Virus record (IMG/VR): IMGVR_UViG_3300017917_000405
Coordinates: 30,729-94,728 of that record
Origin: a virus
DNA length: 64,000 nucleotides
Strand: one strand, 5' to 3'
Shown: positions 23,589-49,373 of the stretch, in pieces
Layout: each line of letters opens with the position of its first letter
Position numbering within the stretch: position 1 is the first letter of the stretch
Made by a program: the position numbers and the translations under genes
Notes under the pieces: generated by a model
Database searches by the model: none
The model's input: only the letters and a program-made list of their open reading frames with translations
Told to the model about the DNA's origin: nothing

Positions 23589-24566
23589 CTAATTTGTTAT
23601 CTGATCGTAACGTTCAAGAAATTCTTTTTTCACTAGACTGAAGTGATCTCCAACTTTCTTTTTCCAATTCCATTGATTATGAACTTCTGATGCTCTATCA
23701 TAATAAACATCACACACATCTTGAGGACTATTATCAACAAAATTTTTCATTTTATTAACAACATCTTCATAGTCTGGCCTATACATCTTTCCAGGATGAA
23801 TGTCTTGCCACAGAGAATAGTCTAAGTAACTATTGATTCTATGCTCTGGTAGTAAAAAGTTTGAATAATCCATCCACTTAGTGGTTGATATAACAGGCAT
23901 CCCAGTAGCAAGAGCCTGTAGTGGAAGCAGACCAAACCCCTCGCCCCATGTTGGATAAATAAAACAATGAGCATTAGACATTAGTTTAGACATTTCTGGA
24001 TACATTAAATTTTCTGTAACAACTTTTACGTTTGGCTCGTTGTATGGAATAGCAGATCCACCATATGCCTTAATAATAAGTTCTACGTTTTTATTTCCAG
24101 CAAAGTTTTCCATAAATGCATTAAACGTGTCGTATAGATTTTTGCGATATGCAGGTGCTCCAAAATGAATAAATGTTATTTTGTCATCTACAGTTCTCTT
24201 TGCTGGTTGCCATACATCGTCTATTCCATGACCAAATACCTTAATTGGACCACTAAAATATTCTGTAAATACATCTTTACAAAATTGATTTGGAACCCAT
24301 AGTTCATCTATTTGTTCTAAATACTCATCCCACTTTGGCTTTAGCGACGTTGACTCCCAAGCGGTATATCCAATCTTGTAAGAGCGTTCTCCATAAAATT
24401 TATAAAACTGTGGATGAGCAAACGTTATTTCAATATCTGCTTTTCTATCTCTTACAACGGTATAGTCAAGTTTTGGTAGGGTGCTTAGAATTTTAAATGT
24501 TGCGTGTCCGTACCCAGTCATAACTGCTGAATCACAGTTATTCATGCTTATTTTCATGTTGTCCAA
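23589..24566 (-). CDS. Glycosyltransferase (GT-B/GT4-like)
   Basis: TGYG...YTAWEST...GEGFGLLPLQALATGMPVI motif. Confidence 0.88.
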   Translation of the reverse strand: MDNMKISMNNCDSAVMTGYGHATFKILSTLPKLDYTVVRDRKADIEITFAHPQFYKFYGERSYKIGYTAWESTSLKPKWDEYLEQIDELWVPNQFCKDVFTEYFSGPIKVFGHGIDDVWQPAKRTVDDKITFIHFGAPAYRKNLYDTFNAFMENFAGNKNVELIIKAYGGSAIPYNEPNVKVVTENLMYPEMSKLMSNAHCFIYPTWGEGFGLLPLQALATGMPVISTTKWMDYSNFLLPEHRINSYLDYSLWQDIHPGKMYRPDYEDVVNKMKNFVDNSPQDVCDVYYDRASEVHNQWNWKKKVGDHFSLVKKEFLERYDQITN

Positions 24567-24594
24567 TCTTTCTCACTATTCTACCTTAGAAATG

Positions 24595-24620
24595 AAAAAA
24601 GCCCCACATTATAGTGGGGC
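24595..24620 (-). terminator. Terminator after holin-like gene
   Basis: GCCCCAC-N6-GTGGGGC stem plus T-run on the minus strand. Confidence 0.75.
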
Positions 24621-24635
24621 AATTTTCAATAAGCA

Positions 24636-24857
24636 CTATGACTGCTTCTTTGATCCCTTTCCCCAACGATTATCAGATGGGTCAAGCGCTGTGATGATTA
24701 GTGGTAGTACAGAAGCAAGACCAGCAGCAAGCCAAGTCCTAAGTTCTGTAATATCTACTGAAAATACATCAGCGCCGTCTGCAAGGAATAGTCCAAGTAC
24801 AACTGAAATGAACACCTTGACATAGGACTTTACGATTTCTAGAATCTTGTTATCCAA
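24636..24857 (-). CDS. Holin-like membrane protein
   Basis: TTG start after AAGGAGGT; two hydrophobic segments and a LDPSDNRWGKG tail typical of actinophage holins. Confidence 0.65.
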   Translation of the reverse strand: MDNKILEIVKSYVKVFISVVLGLFLADGADVFSVDITELRTWLAAGLASVLPLIITALDPSDNRWGKGSKKQS

Positions 24858-24947
24858 GGTAAACCTCCTTCTGGAGAAATTATACCCACATTGACTTCTG
24901 CGAATATCCATGATAAGGTAGATAAGTTGCCGCCGCAAGGAGGAAAC

Positions 24948-25544
24948 ATGACGAAAACGAAACTGGTAGGAGGAATTATGGCAATGGGATTTGTTGCAGG
25001 TGCTGTAATGGGAGTTGCTGCTCCCAATTCCTCTCAACAGGCTTATGCTAAGTCTGTACCAACTGCGACGGATGGGCTAACAGAGCCTACCGCCACAAAT
25101 GTAGGACTTGTTCCTGCACAACAGGAGGCTACTGTAAAACGCCTACCAACTCTGCTGAGAGTTAATTCAGCAGATGACGAAAGAGGATTTGAAAAGAGTG
25201 CATATAAGGGGAAGTATTTTCACCGCGCCGATGAAACTCTACGTCGTTGCATTATCACAAGAGAGAGCCATGCGACCTATATGTTAAATGGCGGAGGGGC
25301 TTATCAATTCATGAGTTATGATAGATGGCCTATCTCACTTTCTTGGATGTTAAAGAAAGAAATACGCAAGCACTATGGAAAACGGCTTGCAAATAAGATG
25401 CAGAAAATACTTTCTCATCATGAAGTAAACGAATGGTCCCGTTATTGGCAGGACGCAGCATTCTATACGGTTCTTAATTACAAGGGCCGTCATTCTGGAA
25501 TCAAGCATTGGACTGCGACTGTTCCAGGGACAGACTGCTTTTAA
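24948..25544 (+). CDS. Secreted Rpf/lysozyme-like transglycosylase
   Basis: Signal peptide; CIITRES...GAYQF...W...QDAAF...GIKHW. Promoter TTGACT-N17-TAAGGT at 24891-24919; AAGGAGG RBS. Confidence 0.72.
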   Translation: MTKTKLVGGIMAMGFVAGAVMGVAAPNSSQQAYAKSVPTATDGLTEPTATNVGLVPAQQEATVKRLPTLLRVNSADDERGFEKSAYKGKYFHRADETLRRCIITRESHATYMLNGGGAYQFMSYDRWPISLSWMLKKEIRKHYGKRLANKMQKILSHHEVNEWSRYWQDAAFYTVLNYKGRHSGIKHWTATVPGTDCF

Positions 25545-25623
25545 GTAGTACAATGGTGGGGGTGGTATACCCAATTTATTAGGTGGCAACAACTACCCCC
25601 ACCACACTTATACTAGGAGAATT

Positions 25624-26307
25624 GTGAAAAAGGTTTTAGACCATGGATATGTTCGTCTTGTAAATAACATGGGCAGCGACTTGGACGTAGTAAATGCTGC
25701 TAGGGTTTCGTTTGATAAAGAAGTCGCAAAATTAGAAAACAAAGATGAAAGGCTCATTGAGTTTCTTGTACAACACAAGCATGATTCATGTCTACGACAT
25801 TGTGTAATGACTTTTGAAGTATATGCACCACTTATGGTCGCTAGACAATGGTATAAGCACGTTGTGGCTGCAAGCGCCCTTGACGACCAACTAGGATGGA
25901 ATGAATCTTCTCGTAGATATATTACTGAAAATGAAGAATTCTATGTGCCAGAAGCCTGGAGAAGCGTCCCCGAAAATAGAAAACAAGGCTCTGGAGATAA
26001 CCTAGACTTAAAGACCTCACAAGTACTTTCTGGAGCGTTAGCGCAGCATATAGATACCGCATACACACTTTACAAAAACGCGCTAGAAGTTGGTGTCGCA
26101 CCAGAACAAGCGCGATTGTTTTTGCCAGCATATGCGATGTATGTGCGCTGGCGTTGGACTGCATCCTTAAATGCTGTATTGCACTTTATTGCGTTACGCA
26201 ACGCGACGGAGGCACAGGCAGAGATCCAAGAATACTCCAAAGCCATAGAAACCATTACATACGACTATTATCCAATTACAAGCAAGTATTGGAATAAATA
26301 CCGATGA
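25624..26307 (+). CDS. thyX: FAD-dependent thymidylate synthase
   Basis: VNAARVSF...H...APLMVARQWYKH...NESSRRY...EQARLFLP...AQAEIQEY. Confidence 0.95.
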   Translation: MKKVLDHGYVRLVNNMGSDLDVVNAARVSFDKEVAKLENKDERLIEFLVQHKHDSCLRHCVMTFEVYAPLMVARQWYKHVVAASALDDQLGWNESSRRYITENEEFYVPEAWRSVPENRKQGSGDNLDLKTSQVLSGALAQHIDTAYTLYKNALEVGVAPEQARLFLPAYAMYVRWRWTASLNAVLHFIALRNATEAQAEIQEYSKAIETITYDYYPITSKYWNKYR

Positions 26308-26915
26308 GATATGAACACATTGCTGATCCACCGCTACTCATCGTGCATGACACCTTCACAGATGAAGAACTACGTCGCGTGTGGAAAGAACTAGACTTTC
26401 TTACAGAAGAAGACTATATGCTTCCACCAGAAAGAACTGGAACTGCTACAAATGAGGACGGAAGCCCCAGGAAAAATAACGCAGCAAGGTTTATAGACCC
26501 ATTCTATGCAGAAGGACTATATTCTCCAGTATGTTTATATACTGAAAAACTTATTGGATCTGATGTTCTAGAGCAATTAGAAAAGGTAAGCCCAACAAAC
26601 AAGTTTTTCTCAAAAATTAATCATAGGTCAGTACTGATAAGTTACTATCAGAATTCTGGATACTACCATCCACATGAAGATTCATGTTTTTATACAATAA
26701 CTACTTATCTATTCAAAGAGCCTAAAAGGTTTACTGGAGGAGATATTTCCATAGAATTTCGGGGCGCGAAAATAGAGATCCACATACACAACAATATGTC
26801 TATAATATTCCCATCCTTCTATCTACACGAAGTGTCTGAAATTAGGATGGAAGACAGACCATTCTCAGGTAATGGTAGATATTGTATTTCTCAATTTTTA
26901 GGAAGTAAGTCATGA
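26304..26915 (+). CDS. 2OG-Fe(II) oxygenase (prolyl hydroxylase-like)
   Basis: HED...FTGG...IFPSFYLHEV...R facial triad and 2OG-binding Arg. Confidence 0.88.
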   Translation: MRYEHIADPPLLIVHDTFTDEELRRVWKELDFLTEEDYMLPPERTGTATNEDGSPRKNNAARFIDPFYAEGLYSPVCLYTEKLIGSDVLEQLEKVSPTNKFFSKINHRSVLISYYQNSGYYHPHEDSCFYTITTYLFKEPKRFTGGDISIEFRGAKIEIHIHNNMSIIFPSFYLHEVSEIRMEDRPFSGNGRYCISQFLGSKS

Positions 26916-27097
26916 CCGAAGATACCGATCTTATTCTTTATATTATGCTAGGACGCATATATGATGTATTGATGATTATTGCTGATGAAATGGGAAGAGG
27001 TCAAGATGTACTTGAATTGCGTCAATTGCATGAGTCAGGAGAACTTATCTGTCCCCCGCCGTCTTTAAAACCTAGTCCTGATCCAAATGCCAATTAA
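26912..27097 (+). CDS. Hypothetical protein
   Basis: 61 aa, ATGA-coupled to the previous gene. Confidence 0.6.
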   Translation: MTEDTDLILYIMLGRIYDVLMIIADEMGRGQDVLELRQLHESGELICPPPSLKPSPDPNAN

Positions 27098-27891: not shown

Positions 27892-28317
27892 CTAGATATC
27901 CTCGCCGCAGGTGTGGCAGTAGATCGCTGCCACTTGCTGGTCCCCGTTGTGATCTTCCTCCATGATCGCGCTGGTGAAATGATCTAGGTGTAGTGCCTTC
28001 CGTAGCCCGCGTGCCCATTCTGCGAACTCCATACCCTTGCGCTGCGCGTCGTGGGTCCATGCACCGTGGCAGGTGGCGCATAGCACCTGGCACTTAGACA
28101 GTTCCGCAAGCAGAGTGCGCGTGGAGTATCGGCGCACCATGTTCGCAGGGTGAACTACCTCGCCAGAGGCGTTGCGGTATTTGTTCGATGGATCTAGGTG
28201 GTCGAGCACTAGGCCCGCCGCGCTCGTGCGATATCCGCAGACTGTGCAACCGTGGGACAGTTTGTGCGCGTCAACTATGGCGCGATTGCGCTCCTGTGCC
28301 TGTCGTGAGATAGCCAT
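27892..28317 (-). CDS. HNH endonuclease
   Basis: CTVCG...LDHLDP...KCQVLCATCH. Likely start MAISRQ at 28317 (TGATG coupling). Confidence 0.8.
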   Translation of the reverse strand: MAISRQAQERNRAIVDAHKLSHGCTVCGYRTSAAGLVLDHLDPSNKYRNASGEVVHPANMVRRYSTRTLLAELSKCQVLCATCHGAWTHDAQRKGMEFAEWARGLRKALHLDHFTSAIMEEDHNGDQQVAAIYCHTCGEDI

Positions 28318-28469
28318 CACGCACACTCCTCGCACCCGTAGGCCTGCAGGCAGTATTGGCACGCGCTGGCCTCGCAAGCCTCGCATGAGGCAAGCGGCGT
28401 CACGTTGTCGCACATATCGCAGGCGAACAGGTCGAAGTCCGAAAGGGAAAGGTGTTCTAGTTCTTGCAT
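28317..28469 (-). CDS. 50-aa protein with four CxxC pairs (not in ORF track)
   Basis: MQELEHLSLSDFDLFACDMCDNVTPLASCEACEASACQYCLQAYGCEECA; GGAGG RBS. Confidence 0.65.
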   Translation of the reverse strand: MQELEHLSLSDFDLFACDMCDNVTPLASCEACEASACQYCLQAYGCEECA

Positions 28470-28728
28470 GACTGCCTCCAAGCGTTGTGAGGGGCAACGT
28501 CACAGACTGCACAACGCCGTCCCTCCTCCATAAAAATGATGTTGTGACTAGCGGCGTTAGCCTCTCGCACACTCGGCTCCATCGCGTTGACCGCGTGGCC
28601 TAGTTCGACCATCGTGTCCATTGTCCTTGCCTTTCGTGAGGTGTTTGTTCCCATGCCTTGATCCAAGCACCTTTCGATCATGTTGTCACGCCCAAACGGG
28701 AGCTTTTTTATCTTTTTTTTCAGAATGT

Positions 28729-28884: not shown

Positions 28885-29059
28885 TTGTTTTTGTAACCTA
28901 TTTACGAAAAGCCCGAAATATCACGAAAGTTCCTGGTGCTTTTGATCTAATTACGATAGGGGAAAATATCACGGAAAGTTTATCGTTTTGTTATCAAATA
29001 GGCTTGACTTTCATGGTTATGTATGGTTAGATATTAGTAATACAAAGAAAGGTAAGGAA

Positions 29060-30837
29060 ATGCCAAAGGAATTCAAGATCGCCATCGTTCCCGCCGTTGC
29101 ATTGTTCGCGCTTTGCACCTACATCTGTATGTCAGCCCTGCGTGCTATCTTTGCTTTCTAGGAGGAAATCATGATGCACATCTACTACTTAGGCCGCTAC
29201 AAGAACAGCGAGCAAGACTACGACCGCGCTAGTGCGTGGGTAGCCAATGAGGTTGCGTCTAGTGGCGCGTCCTTTGCAGACTTTGAGATTGTGGAGGCAT
29301 AATGAAACTCACTCATCGTGGCGAGGTTGCGATTGTCCTTGCTTTCATCGCTGGTTTTGCCTTTCTCTGTCATGTCTTTGGCGAGGGGGGATTCTAAATG
29401 ATGTACCATATCGTTCACCCATTAGCACATGGCGTTAGTGTCATCACTAAGAAAGAAGTGCCCATTGCTATGGCTACCGCAGATACTTGCGAGATTGCAT
29501 TCTTTGACCAAGATGGTGAATGGGTTACTGATATCGTTTCAGAGTTTGTAGAGTATGCAGATAGCGTAGAAGGTGGCACGCTTGTCTATGGCTATGTGCC
29601 AAATGAAGATGTCGAAAACTTTTTAGAAAAATATTCGTAATAGACTTGACAAACCCATTGATTTGGGTCCGGCCCCGAAATGTCCTATTTACGAAGTATG
29701 TACTTTTTCACAGAAAATATAACAGGTTTATAACAATATTGTTTATCATTTCGTTATAAATCAATGTCCGTTTTGTCATATCTACTCGTCAGTAAATGTC
29801 AGACCCCTCTGATAGTTTGTTTCTAGTAGAAAGGATTCACTTATGTTCATGTACATCATCTCCCTTGATTGTTCCCCCTGGAATGTCCCCGTCGTCTGCG
29901 ATGAAATGTCAGACCCCTCGGATAGACTTCACCCATCAATGATGAATCACATTGTCGATATCGAAACGATTGGATTGGTAGCATGAGTACCCCCACCCTT
30001 CACCTTGCTGTCTGCCCGCGCTGTGCAGAAAACTTCCTCTCAACCTTTGAGGCAATCGACGATTGGGAAGATGTTTGCGAGAAGTGCTACGAGGACTTCC
30101 TGCTTGACCTCTACCCCGACCTTGACTGGCAAGCCGAATACCACCACCTTTAGGAGAAACATGACTTACACATTCACTACCCCATTCCTCCGCATTGATT
30201 GGCAGGAGGGTTCTCATACTGCTAACGTCACCACCGTTCGTGGAGATATGGACGTTTTCACGTTCGCATGGCACAAAGACTATCCCGATGTTGTGGACTT
30301 CACCGAAGCCCTTGCATCATGGGTCAACTACTCGCTCACCGTGGAGGACGCTAATGTCTAACTATCTTGACTACCTTCCCGAAGATGGCAACTTCACCGA
30401 AGATGAACTTTGGGACGCGATTGCAGAATCATTAGACGTTGATCCAGATGAGATCAGCGATGGAGATTTGGTGGACTACCTGTGAGCGATTACTTTATCT
30501 ATCACCCAGGATCAGGAACAATGATCGCATTGTCAGATACTGTCTATGTCATTGACGCAACCTCTTTGACTGAACTAGAACTAGATGAATCAGAGGCAGG
30601 AGTGTTAGATATCTATCGCGTGATGGATATTGGTGTTCGCCTTGATAATGAATATTGGGACGAAGTACAAGATGCAATGGAGGCAATGTAATGAAAACTA
30701 ATAGAGAACTCAATCCAACAGAGTTTGAGATTGCATTCCAACTAAAGAATGCGTTAAACGAGTTGAGAAACTATCAAGATATTCCCGCTGCTATTGAGCA
30801 TATCGAATCAGCACTTACAAATCTGTATGAGTGGTGA
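29060..30837 (+). CDS. Run of tiny, mostly acidic early-type ORFs (e.g. 29060-29161, 29171-29302, 29398-29640, ~30161-30361, ~30354-30485, 30482-30691, ~30691-30837)
   Basis: Strong RBSs, coupled start/stop codons, D/E-rich; functions not recognisable. Confidence 0.6.
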
Positions 30838-31072
30838 CTTGACAAACTGAGATCTCGGGGCCGGACGGAACAAATCGGACATTTACGACAACCTAAAAAA
30901 GTCACGGAAATGTAACAATTTTTATTTTTATCGGCGTGTCAACTTGACAGACATATCGGACATATCTCCGTTATCAAACCGTAATAAAACCTGTCCGTTT
31001 TGTATGTTTTTAGAATTAGGTAATGTCAGACCCCTAGTGTAGAGTGAGGGTACTAGTTAGAAAGGCTACAAA

Positions 31073-31342
31073 ATGATTCACGGTATTTACACTCCAATTT
31101 CAATGACTGCCGCCGATATTATTGGCGAGGAAACTATCATGGGAAGTGGCGGTGCGCCTGTCGTTATCCGTCGCGTGTCTAATGATTCTAAGACTGTCAC
31201 TTTCATGGACGTGTACCGTGGAAAATTGTTCCGATTCCGCAAAGATCAAGCGGTCACAGTCCTTATCCGAGAGGACGAAAATGACCCTATCGTGCAAGCG
31301 GAATTGGCTTGTGCATTAGCAGATAAGGGGGTACAATTCTAA
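31073..31342 (+). CDS. Hypothetical protein
   Basis: AGAAAGG RBS downstream of the promoter at 31024. Confidence 0.65.
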   Translation: MIHGIYTPISMTAADIIGEETIMGSGGAPVVIRRVSNDSKTVTFMDVYRGKLFRFRKDQAVTVLIREDENDPIVQAELACALADKGVQF

Positions 31343-31343
31343 T

Positions 31344-31481
31344 ATGATAAAGAATCGTAAGCGTACCCGTGAGGAAATTACCCGCGTGCAGGAATTGCGT
31401 CGTAGTAATGCTGCCATGCCTCACAAGAACAAGTCACGTTACACCCGCAAGGTGAAGCATAAGGGGCAAGCGTATGCTTGA
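31344..31481 (+). CDS. Small basic peptide (45 aa)
   Basis: MIKNRKRTREEITRVQELRRSNAAMPHKNKSRYTRKVKHKGQAYA. Confidence 0.6.
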   Translation: MIKNRKRTREEITRVQELRRSNAAMPHKNKSRYTRKVKHKGQAYA

Positions 31482-31550
31482 GTTTATTCTAATCCTCGCC
31501 TGCTCTATTATCGGTGCTATCATTCTCGCCCTAGAACTCTAAGGAATAAA

Positions 31551-31655
31551 ATGAAAATTGATCTAGACTATGACGCGCAATGCTATTGCGTAGATTGCTG
31601 CCCCGAAGGGTGTTGCCCTTGTGAGGACTGTAATGAGCCTTGCGACTGTCCATAA
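31551..31655 (+). CDS. 34-aa Cys-rich metallothionein-like peptide
   Basis: MKIDLDYDAQCYCVDCCPEGCCPCEDCNEPCDCP; AAGGA RBS. Confidence 0.55.
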   Translation: MKIDLDYDAQCYCVDCCPEGCCPCEDCNEPCDCP

Positions 31656-31760
31656 CCTAATTCCATTCTATTGCGAACCCTGCCAGGAAATAGAGTTTTT
31701 CTGTGATACCTGCGGGGAAAACCTAATCGACTTGTCAGACCCCCATGCTAAGGTGAACCC

Positions 31761-32312
31761 ATGATTAAAGAAATTATCGCTGCCAATACTGTCACCCTCT
31801 ACACGGAACGCTTTCGCTTCCTCGCCCTTCAAGCCACTATGTCACAGATTGAGTCTGCTGCAACGTGGTACTATGACGCGCAGGAGGTTGCGGAGGACGT
31901 TGCGGAAAACTTAGGCGTATCGCTTGAGATCGGTGCTTCCATCGTTGCCGCATTCTCACCTCGTGAGCGTTGGGCAAGCAATGTTGCTAAGGCTCTCGCA
32001 TTCTCATTAGGCAAGCCCGTTGCAGGATTGCAGAATAACTACCGTATGGCAGAACGTTCGATGGAATTGGGCTTTGACGCGCTCAACGGACTAAAGACTA
32101 ATGCGTTCGCTCGTGCTATTGCAGGCGATAATGACGCGGTAGTTATTGACGTATGGATGTGCCGCGCTGCTGCTATTGGCACAGATTCACCTAACAAAAC
32201 ACAGTACAACGATCTGTCGCAAGCGGTTCGCAATGTTGCGGAAGAAATGGGAGTAACACCGCGCACCATGCAAGCACTAATTTGGATTATCATTAGAGGG
32301 AGTGCAAACTAA
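31761..32312 (+). CDS. Helix-hairpin-helix DNA glycosylase-like protein
   Basis: AAFSPRERW...GLKTNAF...VVIDVWMCRAA...MQALIW. Leaderless from the promoter at 31733. Confidence 0.55.
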   Translation: MIKEIIAANTVTLYTERFRFLALQATMSQIESAATWYYDAQEVAEDVAENLGVSLEIGASIVAAFSPRERWASNVAKALAFSLGKPVAGLQNNYRMAERSMELGFDALNGLKTNAFARAIAGDNDAVVIDVWMCRAAAIGTDSPNKTQYNDLSQAVRNVAEEMGVTPRTMQALIWIIIRGSAN

Positions 32313-32855
32313 TGCCTAAAGTAAAATTGCCCAGGGGAGAATGGGAAAGTATTCTCGTCACGTTAGAACTCGCACAACAACATAATATCGTTGCTTATTT
32401 AGATCCACTTATCAAAGAAATAGAAGATCAAGTCTACGCGCAGGAGTACTAAAAATGCTAGATGATATCGCCGTCATGTTCATCACCGTGTTCGGTGTAA
32501 TTATTTTATTTTTTTGGATTGCATCGCTAATTTTTTAGTGCGTTGCACTTGACAAATGCGATAAGCGGGGCCGGATCGGTTGTTACCTAACTGTTACGAA
32601 ACTAACTTGATTTTCACAGAAATTTTTGCTAGGCTTTAGCCATCAACCACTAGGAGGACTCATGGACCCGATTTTCGAATTCTCAGACGGCTTTGACGCT
32701 GTTGGCTGGTACACGGAGCAGTTGTCCAAGCGCGACCACGACGACTATGGCTGGGACTACATAGAAGAATACCCCTACTAGAAAGGGGCCGGACTTTTCT
32801 AAACCTCTTTTACGATAGTGCTTGACTTTCACAGGAATTATGGTAAGTTTGACTT

Positions 32856-33080
32856 ATGAGCGAATCTACTGAAACCATCGAAACCGCATATCAACTCAAT
32901 GCAAATGATAGGTGTGATAAGTGTCAAGCACAAGCATATTTCTGGGTGAATGGAGTAGCAGGGGATCTTCTTTTCTGCCGCCATCATTTCTTGGAAAATG
33001 AAGAAAAAATTCGTGCTTATGCCTTTGAAATTGTAGATGAATCTGATAAGATCAACGAAAGGTCTGAATCAAGTGCTTAG
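32856..33080 (+). CDS. Small zinc-binding protein
   Basis: DRCDKCQAQA...LLFCRHH. Confidence 0.65.
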   Translation: MSESTETIETAYQLNANDRCDKCQAQAYFWVNGVAGDLLFCRHHFLENEEKIRAYAFEIVDESDKINERSESSA

Positions 33081-33196
33081 GTCAAAGAAGAACGTTGGCA
33101 AGAACCACATGCGCTGCCCCTACGGTTGCTGCACAGGAATGAGCAAGAAGCAGGAAAAGCGTATCATCAAGCGCAAGGAAACGAGGGAGTGGAAGA

Positions 33197-33684
33197 ATGA
33201 CAACTGATTCATGTCACCCAATGTCATTGGAAGTAGGAGATCAAGTCCTAATAAATGGAGAGACATTTACTCTCATTGAGGTAGATGATGAGGTTGATCA
33301 TGGATACCGCCTCGTTTTGTCAGACCGCTATGATATGATCAAGTCGTTGATCTTAGGTGATGACCAATATGTAACCCTGGTAGTGGAGGCAGAATAATGT
33401 TCGATGATCTTCATATTCGTACTATCACAAAGGGTGAAGACACCTACATTCACGCCCTTGACTTTGCACAGCACCTTATCTATGTAGCAATGGATTTGCA
33501 GAATACCCTTCCTCCAACAGATGATAAAGATGTGAAGATGATGGACTATGCTGCTTTTGCTACCCTCCGCATGGTTGCCCAACTTATTCTTAGGGGAGAA
33601 GATGTGGAATACATGAGAAACAATCTTGAAACATATGAGGACTTTTTAGCCCTCGCAGATATTGACAATCCAGAAGATCTCTGA
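33197..33684 (+). CDS. Two hypothetical proteins (33197-33397, 33397-33684)
   Basis: Coupled ORFs with RBSs. Confidence 0.6.
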
Positions 33685-33717
33685 TAGACTCTCAACACCC
33701 TAAGGAAAGGAAACATC

Positions 33718-34227
33718 ATGGGGTTGGATATGTATCTCTATGCTCGTAAGTACATCAGCAAGTTTGACTACTCAACTACCTATGAGGATAGGAAGCCTAC
33801 TGAGGAGTTCAACAGTATTCTTTCATATGCCCCCGCAGGTATTGACAAGTATGGCGACTTTGGCGGTGCTTCTGTCAATATTACTGTCGCATACTGGCGC
33901 AAGGCCAATGCTATTCACCAATGGTTCGTAGACAATATCCAAGAAGGTATTGACGACTGCCGTGAGGCATATGTTACCCGTGAGCGACTGGTGGAGTTGC
34001 GAGATCTCGTTGCACAAGTTTGCCAGGTACTGCCTAATGGTGCTCGTGATGAACTCTATGCAGAGGAAGTCCTGCCACCACAAGAAGGATTCTTCTTTGG
34101 CTCATATGAGATTGACGACTGGTATTGGTCAGATCTTGACCATACCTTGGAAATACTCAACCACGTTCTTGCTATTATTCCTGAGGACGATTGGACTTGG
34201 AACTTCTACTACCAATCCTCTTGGTAA
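33718..34227 (+). CDS. Conserved phage hypothetical protein
   Basis: MGLDMYL...AYWRKANAIHQWFV...GFFFGS...YYQSSW, a widespread phage family. Confidence 0.75.
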   Translation: MGLDMYLYARKYISKFDYSTTYEDRKPTEEFNSILSYAPAGIDKYGDFGGASVNITVAYWRKANAIHQWFVDNIQEGIDDCREAYVTRERLVELRDLVAQVCQVLPNGARDELYAEEVLPPQEGFFFGSYEIDDWYWSDLDHTLEILNHVLAIIPEDDWTWNFYYQSSW

Positions 34228-34313
34228 CAGTTTCATAACGGTGGGGGTATATGACTTGACTCTGTGCCCCCACCCATGATAAGATCAAACCACAAACAAC
34301 GAAAGGAAATAAT

Positions 34314-34445
34314 ATGCCAGTCATCGGTTCAGAGTTCACTTCTCAGAAGTCCAAGCACACGGGTATCGTGGCAGAGGTCATTGAGAACAAGAATGGTTCC
34401 TACCGTGTTCGTTTTGAGGACGGACGTTGGACTACTGTTTCGTAG
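34314..34445 (+). CDS. Small SH3-like beta protein (43 aa)
   Basis: MPVIGSEFTSQKSKHTGIVAEVIENKNGSYRVRFEDGRWTTVS; GAAAGGA RBS. Confidence 0.6.
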   Translation: MPVIGSEFTSQKSKHTGIVAEVIENKNGSYRVRFEDGRWTTVS

Positions 34446-34476
34446 TCTGCTAAAATAAATAAAAAAATAGTGGCTT

Positions 34477-34685
34477 GGAATGGGTTGTAGTATAAGGCAG
34501 GAAGTACAGGATTTATCCAAGTGTGAGGTTCAAATCCCACCTACTCGTTCCCCGTGGTTCCTGGAAGGTATCTGTACAAATATCGAAGACTGTCGCCACG
34601 GTATCAAAGGGCAAAAGCGCAATAGGAATAATGCCCTCTCTAATCTGGGAGGGGCTGGCACGTCTTTACTGTCAGCCCTTTCCTC
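34477..34685 (+). ncRNA. Candidate structured RNA: anticodon-less tRNA-like domain followed by three hairpins
   Basis: Closing stem 34477-34487/34541-34551; D-like arm; T-arm GTGAG-TTCAAAT-CCCAC; anticodon arm reduced to GGAT-TT-ATCC. Confidence 0.5.
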
Positions 34686-34813
34686 ACGTCCGGCCCTTTT
34701 TACCCCTACTTTACGATAGATCAAAAAATCACAGGAATTTTTACCAAAATCTATTGACATTTGTCAGACCTAGGCTGTATTCTTGTCTTACAAATCAACG
34801 AAAGGAAATAAAT

Positions 34814-35809
34814 ATGTCGCACATGCTCGAAACCTATGGTGATATGGCTACCTTTGCCTCCCTCCGCGAACCCGCGTGGCATGGCCTGGGAACTGTCTTT
34901 GACCAAGAGGTGACGACGAGCGAAATGCTGTCGCTTGCACACCTTGATGGTTGGAACGTTCGCTTGGAAGATATCAACCTTCCTGGTCGTTCACATCGTG
35001 ATTACTTTGCGGTTGTTCGCACTAACCCGTTTGATGGTGGTGTGGATTCGCTTGGTGTTGTAGGCGAGCGTTACAAGGTTCTCCAGAACGAAGAACTGTT
35101 CCAGTTTGGTGACAACATTGGTGACGGTGCTCGCTGGGAGACTGCTGGTTCTATCAAGAATGGAACTGTTGTCTTTGGCTCCCTCGCCATTGACCGTGAA
35201 AGTGTTATTGACGCGAAGGGCGTGAATGACGTTATCCGTTCTTATCTTCTGGTTCATACCTCGCATGATGGTTCGCTTGCAATCCAGGCTTCCATCACTC
35301 CCGTTCGCGTTGTGTGCCAGAACACGCTGAACATGGCAGTTGGTCCTCGTGGCAAGGGTGCAAAGCAATCATTCCGTATCCGTCACACTCAGACTGTGCA
35401 GGGTAAGGTGCAGGCAGCGCGTGAGGCTCTTGGTCTTGCTCACACCTACCTTGATTCATTCGATGAAATGGCAAAGACTCTGTTTGAGCAAAAGGTAACT
35501 GATGAGAAGTTCTTTGATATCATCACGACTGCATACCCCAAGCCTGAGAAGGACGCAAAGGGTGCATTCACCAAGTGGGATAATAAGGTGCAGACCATCT
35601 CTGATATCTACAACTCTGATACCTGCGTTGGAATCCGTGGTACTGCATGGGGAACGCTGAACGCGATGACTGAGCGCATTGACTGGTTCCGCAATCCTCG
35701 TGGCGGTAATGCTGAAAGCGTTCTTGCTGCTGCTAGTGGCTTTGACGCTGCTACCAATGCAGAGAAGAATCGCCTTACCTCCATTGTGAAGGAACTGGCG
35801 TTCGCATAA
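34814..35809 (+). CDS. DUF932 family (phage/plasmid TIGR03299-like) protein
   Basis: REPAWHGLG...YKVLQNEE...WETAGSI...SHDGS...TPVRVVCQNTL...RHT...GTAWG. True start 34814 after GAAAGGA. Confidence 0.88.
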   Translation: MSHMLETYGDMATFASLREPAWHGLGTVFDQEVTTSEMLSLAHLDGWNVRLEDINLPGRSHRDYFAVVRTNPFDGGVDSLGVVGERYKVLQNEELFQFGDNIGDGARWETAGSIKNGTVVFGSLAIDRESVIDAKGVNDVIRSYLLVHTSHDGSLAIQASITPVRVVCQNTLNMAVGPRGKGAKQSFRIRHTQTVQGKVQAAREALGLAHTYLDSFDEMAKTLFEQKVTDEKFFDIITTAYPKPEKDAKGAFTKWDNKVQTISDIYNSDTCVGIRGTAWGTLNAMTERIDWFRNPRGGNAESVLAAASGFDAATNAEKNRLTSIVKELAFA

Positions 35810-35998
35810 TCAAACTATCCTGGGCATGATATAAAACTGCCTAGCCCTAGGGCTTGACAAATCAAAACTTTCGGGGCCGGACGGTCGGCCCAAACCTTTT
35901 ACGAATCTTTACGATATTTCACAGAAATCACAGAAAATCCTTGACAAGTGTCAGACCCTTCATGTAAGATATGGCTATAACAAACCCTAAGGAGAGAA

Positions 35999-36448
35999 AT
36001 GGATTCCTACACCCGTACCGCGCTTGATAACGCAGCACAAGCAATTGCAGACAAGTATCTTTCATCTGATGCCTATGATGAAGAGGTTTTGCGTAGCCGT
36101 TTACAAGACCTTGAGGCAGAAGCAGGATCATTGCGTAAGTTGCTCAATGAGGCCAATGCAAAACTTGACACCCTATCTGGTTGGGTTATGGAAGCAGCAG
36201 ATCAGGAGTATCTTTCTACTGATACCTTGCAGGAATTGGCAGACATTCTTGAGATTGACCTCCGCAAACTTGTGACTAAGACGTTCCAGGCTACCATCGA
36301 AATTTCATACTATCAGGTGCTTGGCAGGGAAGAGCCATCGTTTGAGGAATTTGACCTTGAGATTCGTGATGGCTACTGTGACAGCATTGACGAAGTAGAA
36401 GATTGGACTGTCATTACTAGTCATGAAGTAAATGATTCCCGATACTAA
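35999..36448 (+). CDS. Acidic coiled-coil hypothetical protein
   Basis: AAGGAG RBS downstream of the promoter at 35941-35970. Confidence 0.7.
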   Translation: MDSYTRTALDNAAQAIADKYLSSDAYDEEVLRSRLQDLEAEAGSLRKLLNEANAKLDTLSGWVMEAADQEYLSTDTLQELADILEIDLRKLVTKTFQATIEISYYQVLGREEPSFEEFDLEIRDGYCDSIDEVEDWTVITSHEVNDSRY

Positions 36449-36807
36449 TTGTTATCTTTTGTCTGTCCCGCCCTTGACTTCTAAGGGTGGGCAGACTAAG
36501 ATATGGTGTGTAACCCACAAGAAATGGAGTTGTAATGACTAAAGACGAAATGCTTGCTGAGTTTAGTGTTCATTCTTTTATTGCCCCGCAGGTTATCGTT
36601 ACCCGTAAGGCAGATGGTGTGATGGGTACACTTGACTTTACCCATGAACCTCGTATATACTCAAACTTCCAACCACTCTAAGGAGATACTAATGCACAAT
36701 GATCCGAGGGTAGAAGAATGGGCAAACTTTCTGGAATCTGCCCCATGGACAAACATGGAAGAACTCGCTACAATAATTGTTGCTGAACTTGATTCTTTGG
36801 AGGACTA

Positions 36808-37038
36808 ATGCAGTACCACTATGTTGTAATGTATGACACAGAATTTGATGAGTGGCGTGTAGATATGGACGCTACTGAGTATCTAGATGGAAACATCTTT
36901 GATCCTGATGCCGCGATTGGTAAAGGCTGGTCTTGGGCAGAGGAAGGTAGCCCCGAGGATTTGCTTGACGGAACCCTTATTCGACTGCTACAATCTGTCA
37001 TGGGAAGCATTCCTACCCCTCCCCGAATTGAGGCATGA
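36808..37038 (+). CDS. Hypothetical protein
   Basis: 76 aa acidic ORF with GGAGG RBS. Confidence 0.6.
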   Translation: MQYHYVVMYDTEFDEWRVDMDATEYLDGNIFDPDAAIGKGWSWAEEGSPEDLLDGTLIRLLQSVMGSIPTPPRIEA

Positions 37039-37079
37039 TGGTTTGACTTATGATATAATTATGTCGAAAGGACGTAACT

Positions 37080-37505
37080 ATGGATAAAAGTCAAACACAC
37101 AGATTTTGGGATCGTGTAAATAAAACTGAGGATTGTTGGCTATGGACGGGTAGCAAAACATCCGCTGGATATGGAAATGTCTATCTTGGATCAAATGAGA
37201 ATGGTAAATGGATTAGAATGTATGCTCATAGATATTCATTTGAGTTAGAGAATGGATATCTTCCAGATGTTGTAATGCATATGTGTGATAATCCTATTTG
37301 TGTCAGACCATCTCACCTTGCACCAGGAAACTGGGATACCAATAACAAAGATATGGTTTCCAAAGGTAGACACGGACACCAAAAACGTATAGAATGTAAA
37401 AATGGTCACCTCTACATAGATGGGAGTTATTACTTATATGGACGACGAAGATTGTGCAAGCAATGTATCACAGACAGAAAACGACGAACAACTAACCCTT
37501 CTTGA
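37080..37505 (+). CDS. HNH homing endonuclease
   Basis: CWLWTG...YAHRYSF...VMHMCDNPICVRPSHL...N and C-terminal CKNGH...CKQC. Confidence 0.9.
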   Translation: MDKSQTHRFWDRVNKTEDCWLWTGSKTSAGYGNVYLGSNENGKWIRMYAHRYSFELENGYLPDVVMHMCDNPICVRPSHLAPGNWDTNNKDMVSKGRHGHQKRIECKNGHLYIDGSYYLYGRRRLCKQCITDRKRRTTNPS

Positions 37506-37534
37506 CTACTCCGAATCGAAATGGCGGTACTACA

Positions 37535-38607
37535 ATGACTAAGTATCTTATCTCATGGACCGAGGAAATCTGGCAGAATGTTGTCATTGACGCAGACTCT
37601 GAGCAGGAAGCAATGGATAAGTTCTGGAGTGTGAACTTTGATACTGAATCTGTCAAAATTTTTGGTGGCGAGGTTCAGGAAGGCGTAGACGTTGAGGAGG
37701 TAGCAGATGACTACTGCAACACAAACTAATTCATATCAGGTAACATTTGTATTTGAGTATGCCACCATCTCTACTTATGTCTTTGCAATGCATGAGGACG
37801 CTGCTCCAGATCTTGCTGCGCTTTTTATTGCAGATGAACTGGGAATTGGTGTAGAATTGCTAGACCAAGCACAAGACATTTCTGTCGAACTAATAGATGA
37901 GGACGTACTGTGACCGTGCTAACCGCATATGAGATTGAGTCTGGGCATGGAGATTCCTACTGGGAGATCTATGATAACGACTACCCTCACAACCCTCCCG
38001 TGACCACGGTAGAGGGAGAAGATTTCGGTGATTATGTTGCCGAACTATTGACAAAGGAATATGTAGATGATATTCTTGTCAATACATATGAGTCCTGGCT
38101 AGACGAGCAAGGGCTTATGGATCATAACGAATATCTGTAATTATCTAGATAAAGGAGAAAGATATGGCAAGCAAGAGCAAGCGCACCTACTCATACTTGG
38201 AGTCGTGGGACACGCGATTTGGCAAGTCCGAGCGAGTGGTGATTCGTGATGAGAATGGTAAGTTTGTAGATAATGTCTCACTTACCGCACTAAAGAAGGC
38301 TCCTACCATCAAGCGGTAGTTCCTTAGGGTAGAGAGGGGGGCAGGCTTGACACCTGTCCCCCTTTCGTGTATGATCGGAGGCATGATGAACGAAGAACAG
38401 ATTGGCAAGAAGTTATGCGATATGTTTTCAGACGAACGTATCAGCCCTATTGGTATTGCACACTACACCTTTGAGCATATGGGGCTTGGTGCTGAAATGC
38501 GAGTGCGTGAATGGCTTGATGAACATGACACGTTTTGCAGGGTAGCAGCAGGTGACGCTTCCTCCATACAACTAGAGTTTGACTTTGATGATATCCCACC
38601 TTTCTGA
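37535..38607 (+). CDS. Run of small hypothetical ORFs (~37535-37729, 37707-37913, 37910-38140, 38164-38319, ~38383-38607)
   Basis: Coupled short, mostly acidic ORFs with RBSs. Confidence 0.6.
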
Positions 38608-39780
38608 TATCGTTTAAATAACAATGATGCCCCAGGACTTGCGCTCTGCAAGTTTCTGGGGCCGGACATAATCCTATAAAACATATTACGAACGACCTAA
38701 AAATATCACAGGAATTTTGGTATCGGTCACATTGCCTAAAATAGTATTACGAACGCATCAAAAAAATCACAGAAAGTTTTGTTATATTGTGTTATATATA
38801 GATATATATGTCAACGGCGGGTGAATGTTGATCCCCCTTACCTATAGAATATACATTACGAACAAAAGAAAAATATCATGGAAATCCCCCATTTTTTATC
38901 AAAATCTATATAGTTTCATGCATTTTGGGGCAATTTTAGGGCGTTTTCTGGCATATTTCTATAGGTTTTTCCTATGGGAAATTAGATAACGATATGATAA
39001 CGCTTTCACAATTACACAATATAACACAAAAAATAAGATGTATAGAATTCATATAATACTATCTTAGGGTTTATTCATAGGTTTTTCCTATATCAAGACG
39101 GTATAGGATATGTTTTATGTCAGAACATATGATGTTATTATTGTCTATACTTTCTTATATCTATAGGGGATATCTTTCTATAGGGAGTAATGTTCTTATC
39201 TGCTAACCCGCCGCCGAATTCTTCCTCTTCATCATCTTCAAATAACCATTCCCATGGATCTAATGGTTCACCCGTGTTCCAGTCATATGTGATAAAGAAG
39301 TCCATTGTTCCTCCTGCGATTTGGGAGAATTCCCTACTCCTAGTATATATTGCGAACGCTATTAATTGCGTCCAGAATTGCCAGATATGCGACCGTATTT
39401 CCTTGCCCCTTTTGGGCATGGGCGAGCCAGTCTAGTTCGCTCAAAACGCGCTCCCTATACATATTGGTAGTATTTTCTAACTCCATATTACAGTTCCAGC
39501 ACTTAGTCATTTTGCTTCCCATCTCACAAAGGCATACGGTAGTGGCTCATAAAGAATGTAGTTCTTTACTGAGATAACCTCAACTCCTGTGTGATTATAT
39601 TTTTGATCAATCATTCTTATCACCGCTTTTCCCATGTCACAGCACCACAATTACAATCCCAATCACCATTACAGCAAGGACAAAAAGCATTGCAGTCCTT
39701 TAAATGATTCTTCCATATGCTTTTGGTCCAACCACTTGCATAGGTAAATGTTTCTTTTGGTTTCTTATTCTTTACGAAAC

Positions 39781-43526: not shown

Positions 43527-43802
43527 CTAAATACTAGATTTAGACTCACGTTCTTCATTCTTTTCAATAATTAAAAGCATATTTTCTTCATTATCAAGAA
43601 TTAAATTTCTGTCAACGTGTGAGGGAATATGATCTCCGATAGACCGATGATATTCAATATGTCGTAGCATCTCGCTTGTTGAATACGCCTTAAATGATCC
43701 TAAATCACTTCTAGCAGAACATCCACAACAACAAAGATAGCCATCAACATCCATATAAATATATGCATCGCTACCTTCCCAGCCGAACCTACAATAACTC
43801 AT
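43527..43802 (-). CDS. Hypothetical protein
   Basis: MSYCRF...CCGC...H motif, 91 aa. Confidence 0.6.
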   Translation of the reverse strand: MSYCRFGWEGSDAYIYMDVDGYLCCCGCSARSDLGSFKAYSTSEMLRHIEYHRSIGDHIPSHVDRNLILDNEENMLLIIEKNEERESKSSI

Positions 43803-44556
43803 TTTTATCTCCTATACTATTTGGCTTCTGGTGATTATTAAATTTATTTCCATATATATCTGTTCCAGAATAATATGTTCTATCAAAAATTTCACCAATG
43901 TTTATTAAATTTTGCCTTACGCTATTATGATCCTTAGTTGCTGATATATTATTTTTTATAAAATCATCAGACATTACTTCGTTAGCATTAATTATAGAAT
44001 ACTCTTGAAACGCCCCTCTTTCAAATGGTATTAGGCAGGCTATTGGGTGTCCAGGAGCAACAACTACTTTTAAGTTTTCAATATTTAAAATAATATTTAT
44101 CGTAAACGTATGTTTGAGGTTATCTGTTTCAACAACCCCGCACATAGTAGTCATGTTTGGATTAACATAATTTGGTGGGTTCATTGTCATTAAATTTATA
44201 TTTTTAGGTGTTTTTAATATAAATGGTAATTCAATTGTAATAATTCCATATCCAAAATGAGAAGTTACAGTAACATTTGACCGATCTACAATATCTTCAT
44301 AGTCATCGAAAAACGTTACTATGGTATCAGATGGCAGATCTCCTCCGTTCCACACGGCCTCAAATCCATACGGAACAGACACCGAAAATCCCTGCTGATT
44401 TCCAATTATAAGAGGAAGGCATCTATAAAAATCTGTTGTAAACCAATTTCTACGAATCACACCATTGAAAGGAGCAATTATGTCTGGCAGTTTGCTCATA
44501 TCAAATGTGGTCGCTGGAATCGCAACAATAGTTTTATCTGGAACTTCATCAAACAT
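43789..44556 (-). CDS. DUF6065-like protein
   Basis: RNWF...YRCLPLIIGNQQG...SHFGYGIIT...PPN...GVVETD...IPF. Confidence 0.65.
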   Translation of the reverse strand: MFDEVPDKTIVAIPATTFDMSKLPDIIAPFNGVIRRNWFTTDFYRCLPLIIGNQQGFSVSVPYGFEAVWNGGDLPSDTIVTFFDDYEDIVDRSNVTVTSHFGYGIITIELPFILKTPKNINLMTMNPPNYVNPNMTTMCGVVETDNLKHTFTINIILNIENLKVVVAPGHPIACLIPFERGAFQEYSIINANEVMSDDFIKNNISATKDHNSVRQNLINIGEIFDRTYYSGTDIYGNKFNNHQKPNSIGDKNELL

Positions 44557-44697
44557 TAGTTATTCTTTAACAATCTATTTAATTCTTCTTCAATATTTTC
44601 TAATTTTTCTTTTACTAAAGGAAGAACAGTTTCGCAAGACCTACATAAATCGTTTGTTTTAATAAACTTATATGCTGGTCCACCACAAAATGCACAG

Positions 44698-44955
44698 TTA
44701 TAGATTGACACGACCATGCTTCCATTCTGAGTAACCCAACTCTTCAGGCTCGGCGTTCTTGCGAACAATCTTTTGCTGTAATTGGTCCATAGACATTGCA
44801 ATTGCCTGCCCTATTTGCTCCATAGCAATAAAGATATCTTCTGGGTGATACTTCTCGCCCTCTTTAAAATACTTTGATTCATAAAGGACTCCGATAACAA
44901 GGTCAGCGAACTCGTCTGGAGTCATGTAGGTAATCCTATTTAGTTCTTGTGACAT
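44698..44955 (-). CDS. Hypothetical protein
   Basis: 85 aa within a dense minus-strand operon. Confidence 0.55.
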   Translation of the reverse strand: MSQELNRITYMTPDEFADLVIGVLYESKYFKEGEKYHPEDIFIAMEQIGQAIAMSMDQLQQKIVRKNAEPEELGYSEWKHGRVNL

Positions 44956-45090
44956 TTACAACCACACTTTCCAAAACTAAACTGATAAGGACAATCCTTA
45001 TCATGTCCCGTCAAGCACCAGCCCGACTTCGTTTCTAATTGTACATCAGGTGTCGGAGGCTTGTCAATAAAATTTTCTAACTTCTTTTTT

Positions 45091-45531
45091 CTAGCCATTC
45101 CAACCCTCCACGGTAGTAGTAGGTATTCCATTCTCTTCCCACAATCTAATTACATTTGGATTATCATCAACTGCATGAACTACAAAATAGTCTTCATTAA
45201 CTAGTTTTAGAATATCTTTTTTAACTTCATAGTCTGGTCGATAATCATTATTATCACGCATATAAAGGTAATCATATGGAACCATAAACTTTGTTAGCCA
45301 TAGTTCTGTCTGCATTCTCCATCTATTATGTCTTGCCGTGACAACAATAATTCTATGTCCTTTCAGCCTTGCCCTTACTGCCATATCTATAACATAGTCG
45401 TGCGCTGGAGCATTGAGAGCACCACTATGAAATGCATCAAAGTCTTTTGGTTTCTTTAAAACATGATGAACAATAGAACTTGTATCCACCAGCGTTCCAT
45501 CAACATCAAAGATGTATGCAGTTGGCTTCAT
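45091..45531 (-). CDS. HAD-family phosphatase (polynucleotide kinase 3'-phosphatase-like)
   Basis: IFDVDGTL...VTAR...MR..D.RPD..VK...VDD. Confidence 0.85.
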   Translation of the reverse strand: MKPTAYIFDVDGTLVDTSSIVHHVLKKPKDFDAFHSGALNAPAHDYVIDMAVRARLKGHRIIVVTARHNRWRMQTELWLTKFMVPYDYLYMRDNNDYRPDYEVKKDILKLVNEDYFVVHAVDDNPNVIRLWEENGIPTTTVEGWNG

Positions 45532-45708
45532 GGCTTCCTATAAAAATATTCTTCTGGAACAATACTATTAATCTTTTTTATTGTTCTACGCATTGCTGTA
45601 TTCTTTTTAAGACCAATAGAACCAGCATGAACAATGTATGAGTTTGCTGGAGAAGAGATAAGGTACGCCTCGCTCTTCCAAAAGATTCCTTTTTTAAATA
45701 AAATAATC

Positions 45709-45894
45709 TTATACATCGTACTGGGCCAAGTCTAGCGGAGTTGGCGCAGTAATCTTTGTACCACAGTAGGCACATTCAGCGTCTAACAAATACATTCCAA
45801 TCTCGTAATCTTCGTCAAACTTCACCTGAACGGTAAATAGATCAGACGAGCAACTTGGGCATTCTCTAGTAGGAATACCGCGAGCGTCCATCAT
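45709..45894 (-). CDS. Small zinc-ribbon protein
   Basis: CPSC...CAYCG..TAPTP. Confidence 0.65.
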   Translation of the reverse strand: MMDARGIPTRECPSCSSDLFTVQVKFDEDYEIGMYLLDAECAYCGTKITAPTPLDLAQYDV

Positions 45895-46222
45895 TATGCT
45901 CCTTCATAATAAAACATTAAGACTTCTTCGTAGTCGTCATAAAATGACTCATCCACTCCCTAATTGTACAACAGAGAGTGGATGTATGTCAACTATGACT
46001 GACGGGCAAAAATGGCATCTATTTCTGCCTTATGCGATGGTGTCAGCGCGGCATTCCTTAGACGATCCCATTCCTTCTGGATATTTTCTACTTCGCTTGT
46101 GGCTCTGTCTTGAAAAAGTCCAGCAAAAATTGAATATGCTTTCATTATTCCTCCTTGTGGGTTGATATATCTATCATAACAATGAAAGCGTTTCCAGTCA
46201 ACCGCTAAGACTGTGAGACTGA

Positions 46223-46603
46223 TCACGAACCATGTGATTTTGCTGCACTTTGTTGCTGTTGTTGCTGAGATGCCTGTTGTGCTGCCGCTGCTGCGTCTGC
46301 TGCTGCCTGGGCTGCTGCTTGCTTTGCTGCTTTCTTTGCAGCCTTTGCCTTTGCCTGTACTACATTCATATCTGCAGAATTTGCAGAAGCAACTTTAGGA
46401 GCATTTACTGGAGGCTGTGGCATAGCAACATCAGTTGTTGTGTCCTGTCCCTGATCCTGCTCAGTTCCTGCAATGCTTGCTCCTGCTAGTCCAGCAGTAA
46501 CGGCTCCTGTTGCAGCAACAGACCCAATAAGAATTGCTGCTGTAGTAGACTTAACAGTCTTTAATCCCTTATTTCTTCTTGCTATTTGTTTTTCTAATGA
46601 CAT
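46223..46603 (-). CDS. Membrane-anchored Ala/Gln-rich protein
   Basis: Basic N-terminus, TM segment, low-complexity stalk, C-terminal KSHGS. Confidence 0.65.
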   Translation of the reverse strand: MSLEKQIARRNKGLKTVKSTTAAILIGSVAATGAVTAGLAGASIAGTEQDQGQDTTTDVAMPQPPVNAPKVASANSADMNVVQAKAKAAKKAAKQAAAQAAADAAAAAQQASQQQQQQSAAKSHGS

Positions 46604-49000: not shown

Positions 49001-49001
49001 A

Positions 49002-49361: not shown

Positions 49362-49373
49362 AGATAGATTGTA

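Follow-up and report, generated by a model that had tools for sequence, protein, structure and literature searches.

Oriented bipartite sites in a block of small genes

The stretch of DNA analysed here, referred to as the window, is 64,000 nucleotides long and corresponds to bases 30729-94728 of the 94,728-bp viral genome recorded in IMG/VR as IMGVR_UViG_3300017917_000405. It contains a block of small genes punctuated by twelve copies of a bipartite element that we call the A-B site, in which an A box, TTACGA, is followed after 12-14 nt by a B box, TCACRGRAA. All twelve copies are co-oriented with transcription, as are those of related phages, and all twelve are intergenic in the open reading frame (ORF) maps; the ORF at 34523-35809 that apparently covers the site at 34711 is an upstream extension of the DUF932 gene, which has an ATG with a ribosome-binding site at 34835. 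The sites are as follows.

28902-28929, + strand: site 1, in the left-end pair, with a weaker B box.
28951-28977, + strand: site 2, in the left-end pair, followed by a TTGACT-17-TAGATA promoter at 29004.
29689-29716, + strand: site 3, with a TGTC element at 29797, 108 bp downstream.
30883-30910, + strand: site 4, heading the DUF7178 cassette.
32594-32622, + strand: site 5, straddling the -35 hexamer TTGATT (32607-32612), with TAGGCT 17 nt on; the B box, 16 nt before TAGGCT, is in the -26 slot.
32810-32837, + strand: site 6, straddling the -35 hexamer TTGACT (32822-32827), with TAAGTT 16 nt on; the B box, 15 nt before TAAGTT, is in the -26 slot.
34711-34737, + strand: site 7, heading the DUF932 cassette, with a TGTC element at 34762, 51 bp downstream.
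35899-35936, + strand: sites 8 and 9, interleaved as A-A-B-B with an A offset of 10 and a B offset of 9; the second A box lies 40 bp before a TGTC element at 35949.
38686-38714, + strand: site 10, in the right-end array.
38747-38775, + strand: site 11, in the right-end array, with TATATT at +16 from the B box.
38856-38884, + strand: site 12, in the right-end array, with TCATGG as its B box.

Searching the window with the pattern TTACGA, N11-15, TCAYRR returned exactly these twelve sites, all on the + strand, and shuffled sequences, from which the chance level was taken, gave a mean of 0.19 matches and a maximum of 1. The twelve oriented, + strand, intergenic sites described in a first-pass annotation of the window are therefore borne out with exact coordinates, and so are the multiplication of copies at the block ends (two on the left, three on the right), the interleaving of the pair at 35899/35909, and the straddling of -35 hexamers at 32594 and 32810, each of which has a -10 hexamer 16-17 nt on. 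An apparently leaderless ATG follows site 6 at 32856, 6 nt past TAAGTT. The second half-site of that annotation is present in all twelve copies, although the conserved B box is longer than was described and the 28902 copy weaker; a logo of 39 sites from four phages extends it to TCAC-N-GGAAT-n-T, preceded by an A-tract, with no further conservation downstream. The spacer is free in sequence and fixed in length, with about two helical turns between the centres of the half-sites, in agreement with the earlier suggestion that this is a site of the kind contacted by a protein. Across the whole genome only a single additional loose match was found (genome position 7585), so that the motif is otherwise confined to the block. 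TTACGA by itself occurs in 38 copies against 22.8 expected, and at 28902-38861 there are 12 on the + strand as opposed to 3 on the - strand.

The sites are bounded by 28902 and 38884, as annotated, but the plus-strand block in which they lie begins earlier, at about 24.9 kb; all genes in the genome are on the - strand except those at 24.9-39.0 kb of the window. The site-bearing part (28.8-39.0 kb) has a G+C content of 43-48%, compared with 35-41% in its flanks. The block consists of about 35 small ORFs, among which only DUF932, DUF7178, DUF7455 and an HNH nuclease are recognizable.

Conservation of the A box and lineage specificity of the B box

Scanning IMG/VR for the strict motif identified contigs of about 95-107 kb that carry many copies on a single strand, clustered in one block, and 18 further relatives were fetched by way of DUF7178; these metagenomic relatives are designated by G and L numbers. 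With its confinement to the block, its retention in relatives means that the refuting conditions named in the first-pass annotation do not hold. The motif is kept even though block proteins are only 40-75% identical between them and cassette order is shuffled, and orthologous DUF932 and DUF7178 cassettes are still headed by a site. Interleaved A-A-B-B pairs are common, with A and B offsets that agree within 1 bp in five phages, and because such pairs keep equal offsets the A and B boxes behave as one rigid unit.

Most of the 18 relatives fetched through DUF7178 have no strict A-B site despite their many TGTC promoters (168 on the gene strand and 11 on the other, in all 18). They do have the A box, often prefixed by TGTCAAG, and at the same distance from it a different B box that is consistent within each phage. 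Among about 25 phages the A box is invariant, and the B types found at the same N13-14 are TCACNGRAA, TTTCCCAGAATT, YCCTGGAA, TTTTCCCCRAA and AATCGCC. The orthologous modules at window position 32810 and at 14618 in L148 have kept the A box and the embedded -35 hexamer and have swapped the B box.

Core genes were compared in eight complete or near-complete genomes (the window phage, G001-G003 and G207-G210), which form two clades; TCACNGRAA is the B box in all four members of the window's clade, and different types are found in the second clade. Between clades, identity is 10-15 points higher for DUF7178, DUF932 and DUF7455 than for the core genes. Since block genes are more alike across clades than core genes, the block cassettes have evidently been exchanged horizontally, and by the same comparison the B box follows the resident core-genome clade and not the ancestry of the neighbouring cassette. 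That the B type tracks the resident clade while cassettes move points to a reader of the B box that would be encoded in the core genome. A search for block protein families associated with B type was confounded by near-identical phage pairs, the core comparison showing only that B follows clade.

Recombination sites or homology patches delimiting exchangeable cassettes, as the first-pass annotation had suggested, could also account for a module that each cassette retains while cassette order is shuffled between relatives and block genes cross clades. The shuffling is real, but no site-specific recombinase was recognized among about 90 ORFs scanned, which yielded only RecA and a RuvC-like protein; B boxes that differ by lineage would make poor shared crossover sites, and the phasing to promoters described below is neither predicted nor explained by such a role. 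We consider it very improbable, although the repeated modules may favour homologous exchange as a by-product, as with the PeSL elements of T4.

Helical phasing to downstream promoters

Downstream of the sites are complete promoters, either TTGACA-type or consisting of a TGTC element with TAnnnT 16 nt from its start. Promoters dependent on PafBC have a published -26/-10 geometry of tGTCgg-N10-tAnnnT (PMC8635444), and an equivalent arrangement (tGTC(g/a)g, N10, tAnnnT) is found in the neighbouring TGTC promoters and not in the A-B site itself. In the window these are as follows.

34762-34783, + strand: PafBC-type promoter; further copies start at 29797, 29907, 31024, 31733, 33318 and 35949, and the distance from TGTC start to TA is 16 in all 7 copies.

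A six-frame search of the phage found no WYL protein.

The distance between an A box and the TGTC element that follows it, measured in 49 cases from 20 phages, is quantized at about 29, 40, 51, 63 and 74 bp, with a period of about 11.2-11.3 bp; the helical repeat usually seen in vivo is near 11.2 bp. There are 8 distances of 27-32 bp, 19 of 37-43 bp, 10 of 48-53 bp, 6 of 61-64 bp, 2 of 74 bp, 3 of 108-112 bp and 1 of 130 bp, and the gaps between classes are empty (Rayleigh R 0.71 at 11.5 bp and 0.64 at 11.0 bp; p<1e-9). In the window phage alone the A-to-promoter distances are 19/20, 40, 51 and 108. The same quantized pattern is seen in the B-to-TGTC distances of type-1 phages. The 11-bp slots between B and TGTC hold either a -35 hexamer or a second B box, and the sites that straddle a -35 hexamer represent slot zero of the series, their B box lying 15-16 nt before TAnnnT at the place of the TGTC element. 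The B box is not a general -26 element, TAnnnT being present at +15 to +17 in only about 6 of 62 cases. The annotated tie to gene expression holds, in that the sites are linked to transcription of the small-gene block and two copies overlap a -35 hexamer. Phasing of this sort is what a face-specific contact with a promoter complex would predict, and it would not be needed by roadblocks, packaging signals or recombination sites.

It could be argued that the A-B site is itself a promoter whose -35 and -10 elements are the A and B boxes, respectively, and which serves a sigma-like factor, either alternative or encoded by the phage. Group-3 sigma promoters have a similar fixed-spacer bipartite form, and the A-B site is bipartite and gene-oriented, has a fixed spacer of 12-15 nt and keeps its spacing in overlapping duplicates; an ATG without a ribosome-binding site lies 10 nt past the B box in G002 (1026) and in L102, and a lineage-tracking B box could reflect sigma variants. 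However, neither Sigma70_r2 nor Sigma70_r4_2 was detected in six frames of the phage, there is no conservation past B, and another complete promoter intervenes between nearly every site and its gene. In three orthologues a start site could not be accommodated, since a GGAG ribosome-binding site begins 3-4 nt after B; a promoter would not be expected to be helically phased to another one, and no regulon of such sites was seen in 201 genomes of the candidate host family. A sigma-type promoter therefore seems improbable.

Upstream modules and terminators

Most sites in the window phage are preceded by CTTGACAAA and, after 10-13 nt, GGGGCCGGA(C), a module for which the following coordinates were obtained.

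30838-30866, + strand: upstream module CTTGACAAA-N10-GGGGCCGGA(C), at a fixed distance from the site (43-45 nt from TTGACA to the A box); further copies at 29645, 32548 and 35853.

Both orientations of the GC box are found: positions 32785 and 38658 carry it alone, positions 29668 and 34688 an inverted copy. It is often the 3' arm of a strong hairpin that lacks a U-tract. An RNA element was considered and rejected: there was no Rfam match, no fold common to the seven modules and no complementarity between the two halves.

The position of the sites after hairpins or GC boxes, at a GC box-to-A distance that is fixed at 25-28 nt in the window phage, could be taken to indicate a stoperator, roadblock or insulator, at which a bound protein would halt elongating polymerase at unit ends, reinforce the terminators without U-tracts and seal the block ends. 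Arrays are present at both ends of the block, the right one facing convergent genes, and the many asymmetric, co-oriented copies recall the stoperators of phage L5, which are likewise asymmetric and co-oriented. Across phages, however, the hairpin-to-A distance ranges from 9 to 34 nt while the distance to the downstream promoter is quantized, and there are numerous internal promoters and gene junctions without sites. The sites are preceded by a terminator-like hairpin and followed by the next promoter, and are not inside transcribed regions; Pfam scans of about 90 ORFs, many of them without assignment, together with a six-frame HTH_3 search found no helix-turn-helix repressor or integrase. The stoperator-like shut-off put forward in the first-pass annotation does not sit well with sites that are upstream of promoters at distances quantized in helical turns, and we regard it as quite unlikely.

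Several further arrangements were observed around these modules. In relatives (L132 at 8330-8395, and modules of L135, G002 and G003) CTTGACAAA and its inverse, TTTGTCAAG, flank a terminator hairpin, with the inverse copy abutting the A box; of this pair the window retains the upstream copy only. A second class of upstream motif consists of GTTATC-like direct repeats about 11 bp apart before TGTC promoters (window 28975-28995, 29715-29760 and 30965, and also in L134 and L144), and in L144 a palindromic GC box directly abuts the TGTC element in at least 20 one-gene cassettes.

Arrays at the block ends

In every phage 3-9 sites adjoin DnaA boxes within an AT-rich region of about 1 kb, and pairs of DnaA boxes abut the A box in G001, G002 and G003. 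Such sites could be iterons, or could act in the end regions in replication initiation, partition, packaging or DNA entry, in which case the dispersed copies would be secondary; Rep proteins bind iterons as monomers and inverted repeats as dimers, and an inverted B half (TGTGA-N6-TCAC) is present in 8 of about 62 type-1 sites. The spacing within arrays is irregular (35-300 bp), though, and most copies are single, at cassette heads and promoter-phased. No initiator or partition gene was recognized, and genes follow directly on the 'terminal' sites of G002 and L012. Polar signals for DNA entry or packaging had been among the first-pass proposals, and promoter phasing is not predicted by them. 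The right-end array of the window and the AT-rich arrays of its relatives leave room for a role in replication or at the ends, to which we assign a low probability.

Past the last site, at 38900-39137 of the window, is an AT-rich non-coding stretch with a repeat of about 15 nt that occurs twice, near 38960 and 39078, and a short stretch containing TGGCATAT recurs near the terminal arrays of G002 and G003. The GC-rich ORF at 27892-28572 (- strand; 226 amino acids) adjoins the DnaA-box region. The C-terminal half of its product is an HNH endonuclease and the ORF is not conserved in relatives; it was considered and set aside, being probably a homing-endonuclease insertion.

The phage and a candidate host

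Recognized functions in the genome include portal, protease, capsid, ribonucleotide reductase, ThyX, RecA, primase, a RuvC-like protein and nucleotide-modifying enzymes. The portal is 54% identical to those of Streptomyces phages of the Stanwilliamsviridae, and a WhiB-like gene at 48146-48436 (- strand), also found in four relatives, encodes four cysteines and a GVWGG turn (Pfam Whib, E 1.9e-12); because of this portal kinship and the WhiB-like gene, we take the window phage to be an uncultured actinophage of a low-G+C host. In Streptomyces phage Karimac, matches to the DUF932 gene and to the ThyX neighbourhood lie in the 11.6-kb terminal-repeat region, each intergenic gap of which likewise has a hairpin and a GC box along with a short repeat and a promoter; by this likeness the block may be an 'early', first-entering region. 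No comparable block was found in the BK-cluster phage BillNye, and a genome-contig profile search with DUF7455 gave no match. A candidate for the host, a metagenome-assembled genome (MAG) labelled Aquiluna, includes a contig with a 60%-identical phage-type reductase and has two tandem WYL ORFs.

DNA- and nucleotide-modification genes are present at 23589-27097 and 43789-52637 of the window (ThyX, a 2-oxoglutarate-Fe oxygenase, dCMP deaminase, two glycosyltransferases, two DUF6065 proteins and a PNKP-type phosphatase), and an FkbM methyltransferase of the same set is encoded before the window; together these suggest a hypermodified base. Three tandem paralogues of 239-254 amino acids at 52979-55193 (- strand) each contain a phage tail-collar domain.

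A putative two-module factor

The best explanation that we can offer, with about an even chance of being correct, is that the A-B units are putative operators or upstream control sites for a two-module, probably phage-encoded factor that acts, with the promoter complex heading each cassette, on one face of the DNA. The site, its rigidity and conservation, the lineage specificity of the B box and the helical quantization with respect to the promoter are established by the data, and we infer from there that a protein binds. A conserved module of the factor would read the invariant A box, and an evolving module, about two helical turns away, would read the lineage-specific B box; the factor itself would most likely be phage-encoded, from the core genome rather than from the block. 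Once bound it would share a helix face with the promoter complex that follows, either of the PafBC-type -26/-10 kind or a sigma-A -35/-10 complex, and would switch the first promoter of each small-gene cassette.

The direction of control is finely balanced, and we have a slight preference for timed shut-off over activation. Positions that are upstream and phased suggest activation, while the near-perfect consensus of the sites, the overlap with -35 hexamers, the lineage specificity and the arrays without promoters suggest a high-affinity repressor. Protein p4 of phage phi29 illustrates that one factor is able both to activate and to repress.

Several observations weigh against this explanation. 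The only DNA-binding regulator found in Pfam scans of about 90 ORFs and in six-frame searches for WYL, Sigma70_r2, Sigma70_r4_2 and HTH_3 is the WhiB-like protein; the right-end array (38686-38856) and the similar 3-9-site arrays of relatives are mostly without a recognizable downstream promoter; and the 49 A-to-TGTC distances are not fully independent, some of them coming from orthologous modules. The search for a host regulon sampled one host family, that of the Aquiluna MAG, which may not be that of the true host. In 201 genomes of this family the strict A-B motif was at chance level (6 matches and 1 in the control), and the A box was not coupled to PafBC-type promoters (5 and 1, respectively, in 51 genomes). 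A regulon of a host transcription factor or sigma factor was rejected on these counts from the one family. A host motif at chance level is consistent with a phage-encoded reader in the core genome.

DUF7178 was considered as the factor and rejected, since it has only a weak likeness to HhH-GPD glycosylases and its similarity pattern runs against B type. The protein (window 31761-32312, + strand) is confidently predicted by AlphaFold to be all-helical, with a predicted local distance difference test score (pLDDT) of 92.8, and its best PDB matches are all HhH-GPD DNA glycosylases, at weak significance (E 0.07-1).

A more specific proposal, which we think unlikely, is that a phage-encoded modular adaptor gates hijacked promoters of the DNA-damage type by docking, in helical register, beside the PafBC-sigma-A complex of the host, the invariant half-site serving as an anchor and the lineage half as a specificity code. 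If this were true, cassettes moving between lineages would need re-addressing, and the adaptor would constitute a second layer over sigma adaptation that is unique to these actinophages.

Comparison with known systems

Like the sites of class I/II CRP and of phi29 p4, for which position decides between activation and repression, the A-B sites lie upstream of a core promoter at integer helical turns and have an adjoining A-tract; they differ in being asymmetric, with one half invariant and the other lineage-specific, and in having a partner promoter of the PafBC -26/-10 type. A CRP/GlxR/Rex-type palindrome, TGTGA-N6-TCACA, was rejected as a description of the window sites, all twelve of which lack its left half; among about 62 sites of relatives, 8 have it. 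The halves flank a -35 hexamer, as do those of lambda CII sites, at window positions 32594 and 32810, at 27799 in G003 and at 14618 in L148, but the A and B halves are dissimilar and 12-14 nt apart, and most A-B copies are further upstream.

With the stoperators of mycobacteriophage L5 and the C1 operators of P1 the sites share asymmetry, dispersal in multiple copies and co-orientation with transcription, although they are restricted to one 10-kb block and are promoter-phased upstream, and no immunity repressor or integrase was found in the scans of about 90 ORFs. The T4-type phages reportedly have mobile regulatory cassettes, termed PeSL and said to have been described by Arbiol et al. in 2010, in which, as here, repeated promoter-hairpin modules flank small genes of a plastic region and the order varies between relatives; the modules described here have in addition a dedicated factor site, and belong to another phage family with hosts of another phylum. 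A few B boxes occupy exactly the slot of the PafBC -26 element (PMC8635444), 15-16 nt before TAnnnT, and the pattern T..CAG is common to T-C-A-C-A-G and T-G-T-C-A-G, but a -10 at that distance is found for only about 6 of the 62 B boxes, B requires an A box 13-14 nt upstream and the phage is without a WYL protein.

Implications

We found no description of the motif in the literature, and the A-B site is apparently a real, conserved and previously undescribed cis-regulatory element of an abundant group of actinophages; DUF7178, a single block protein, has 1425 metagenomic homologues, and the group is very abundant in the environment. The element is unusual in that only one of its halves varies with lineage, the other being invariant, and in that it keeps strictly to helical register with PafBC-type promoters. 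The sites offer a precise handle on the transcription programme of the group, in the form of a 28-bp probe and of half-sites that differ naturally from lineage to lineage. Should the partner promoters prove to depend on PafBC, a virulent actinophage would be adding its own control to host stress-response transcription. As control parts for use in Actinobacteria the modules would be compact and orthogonal.

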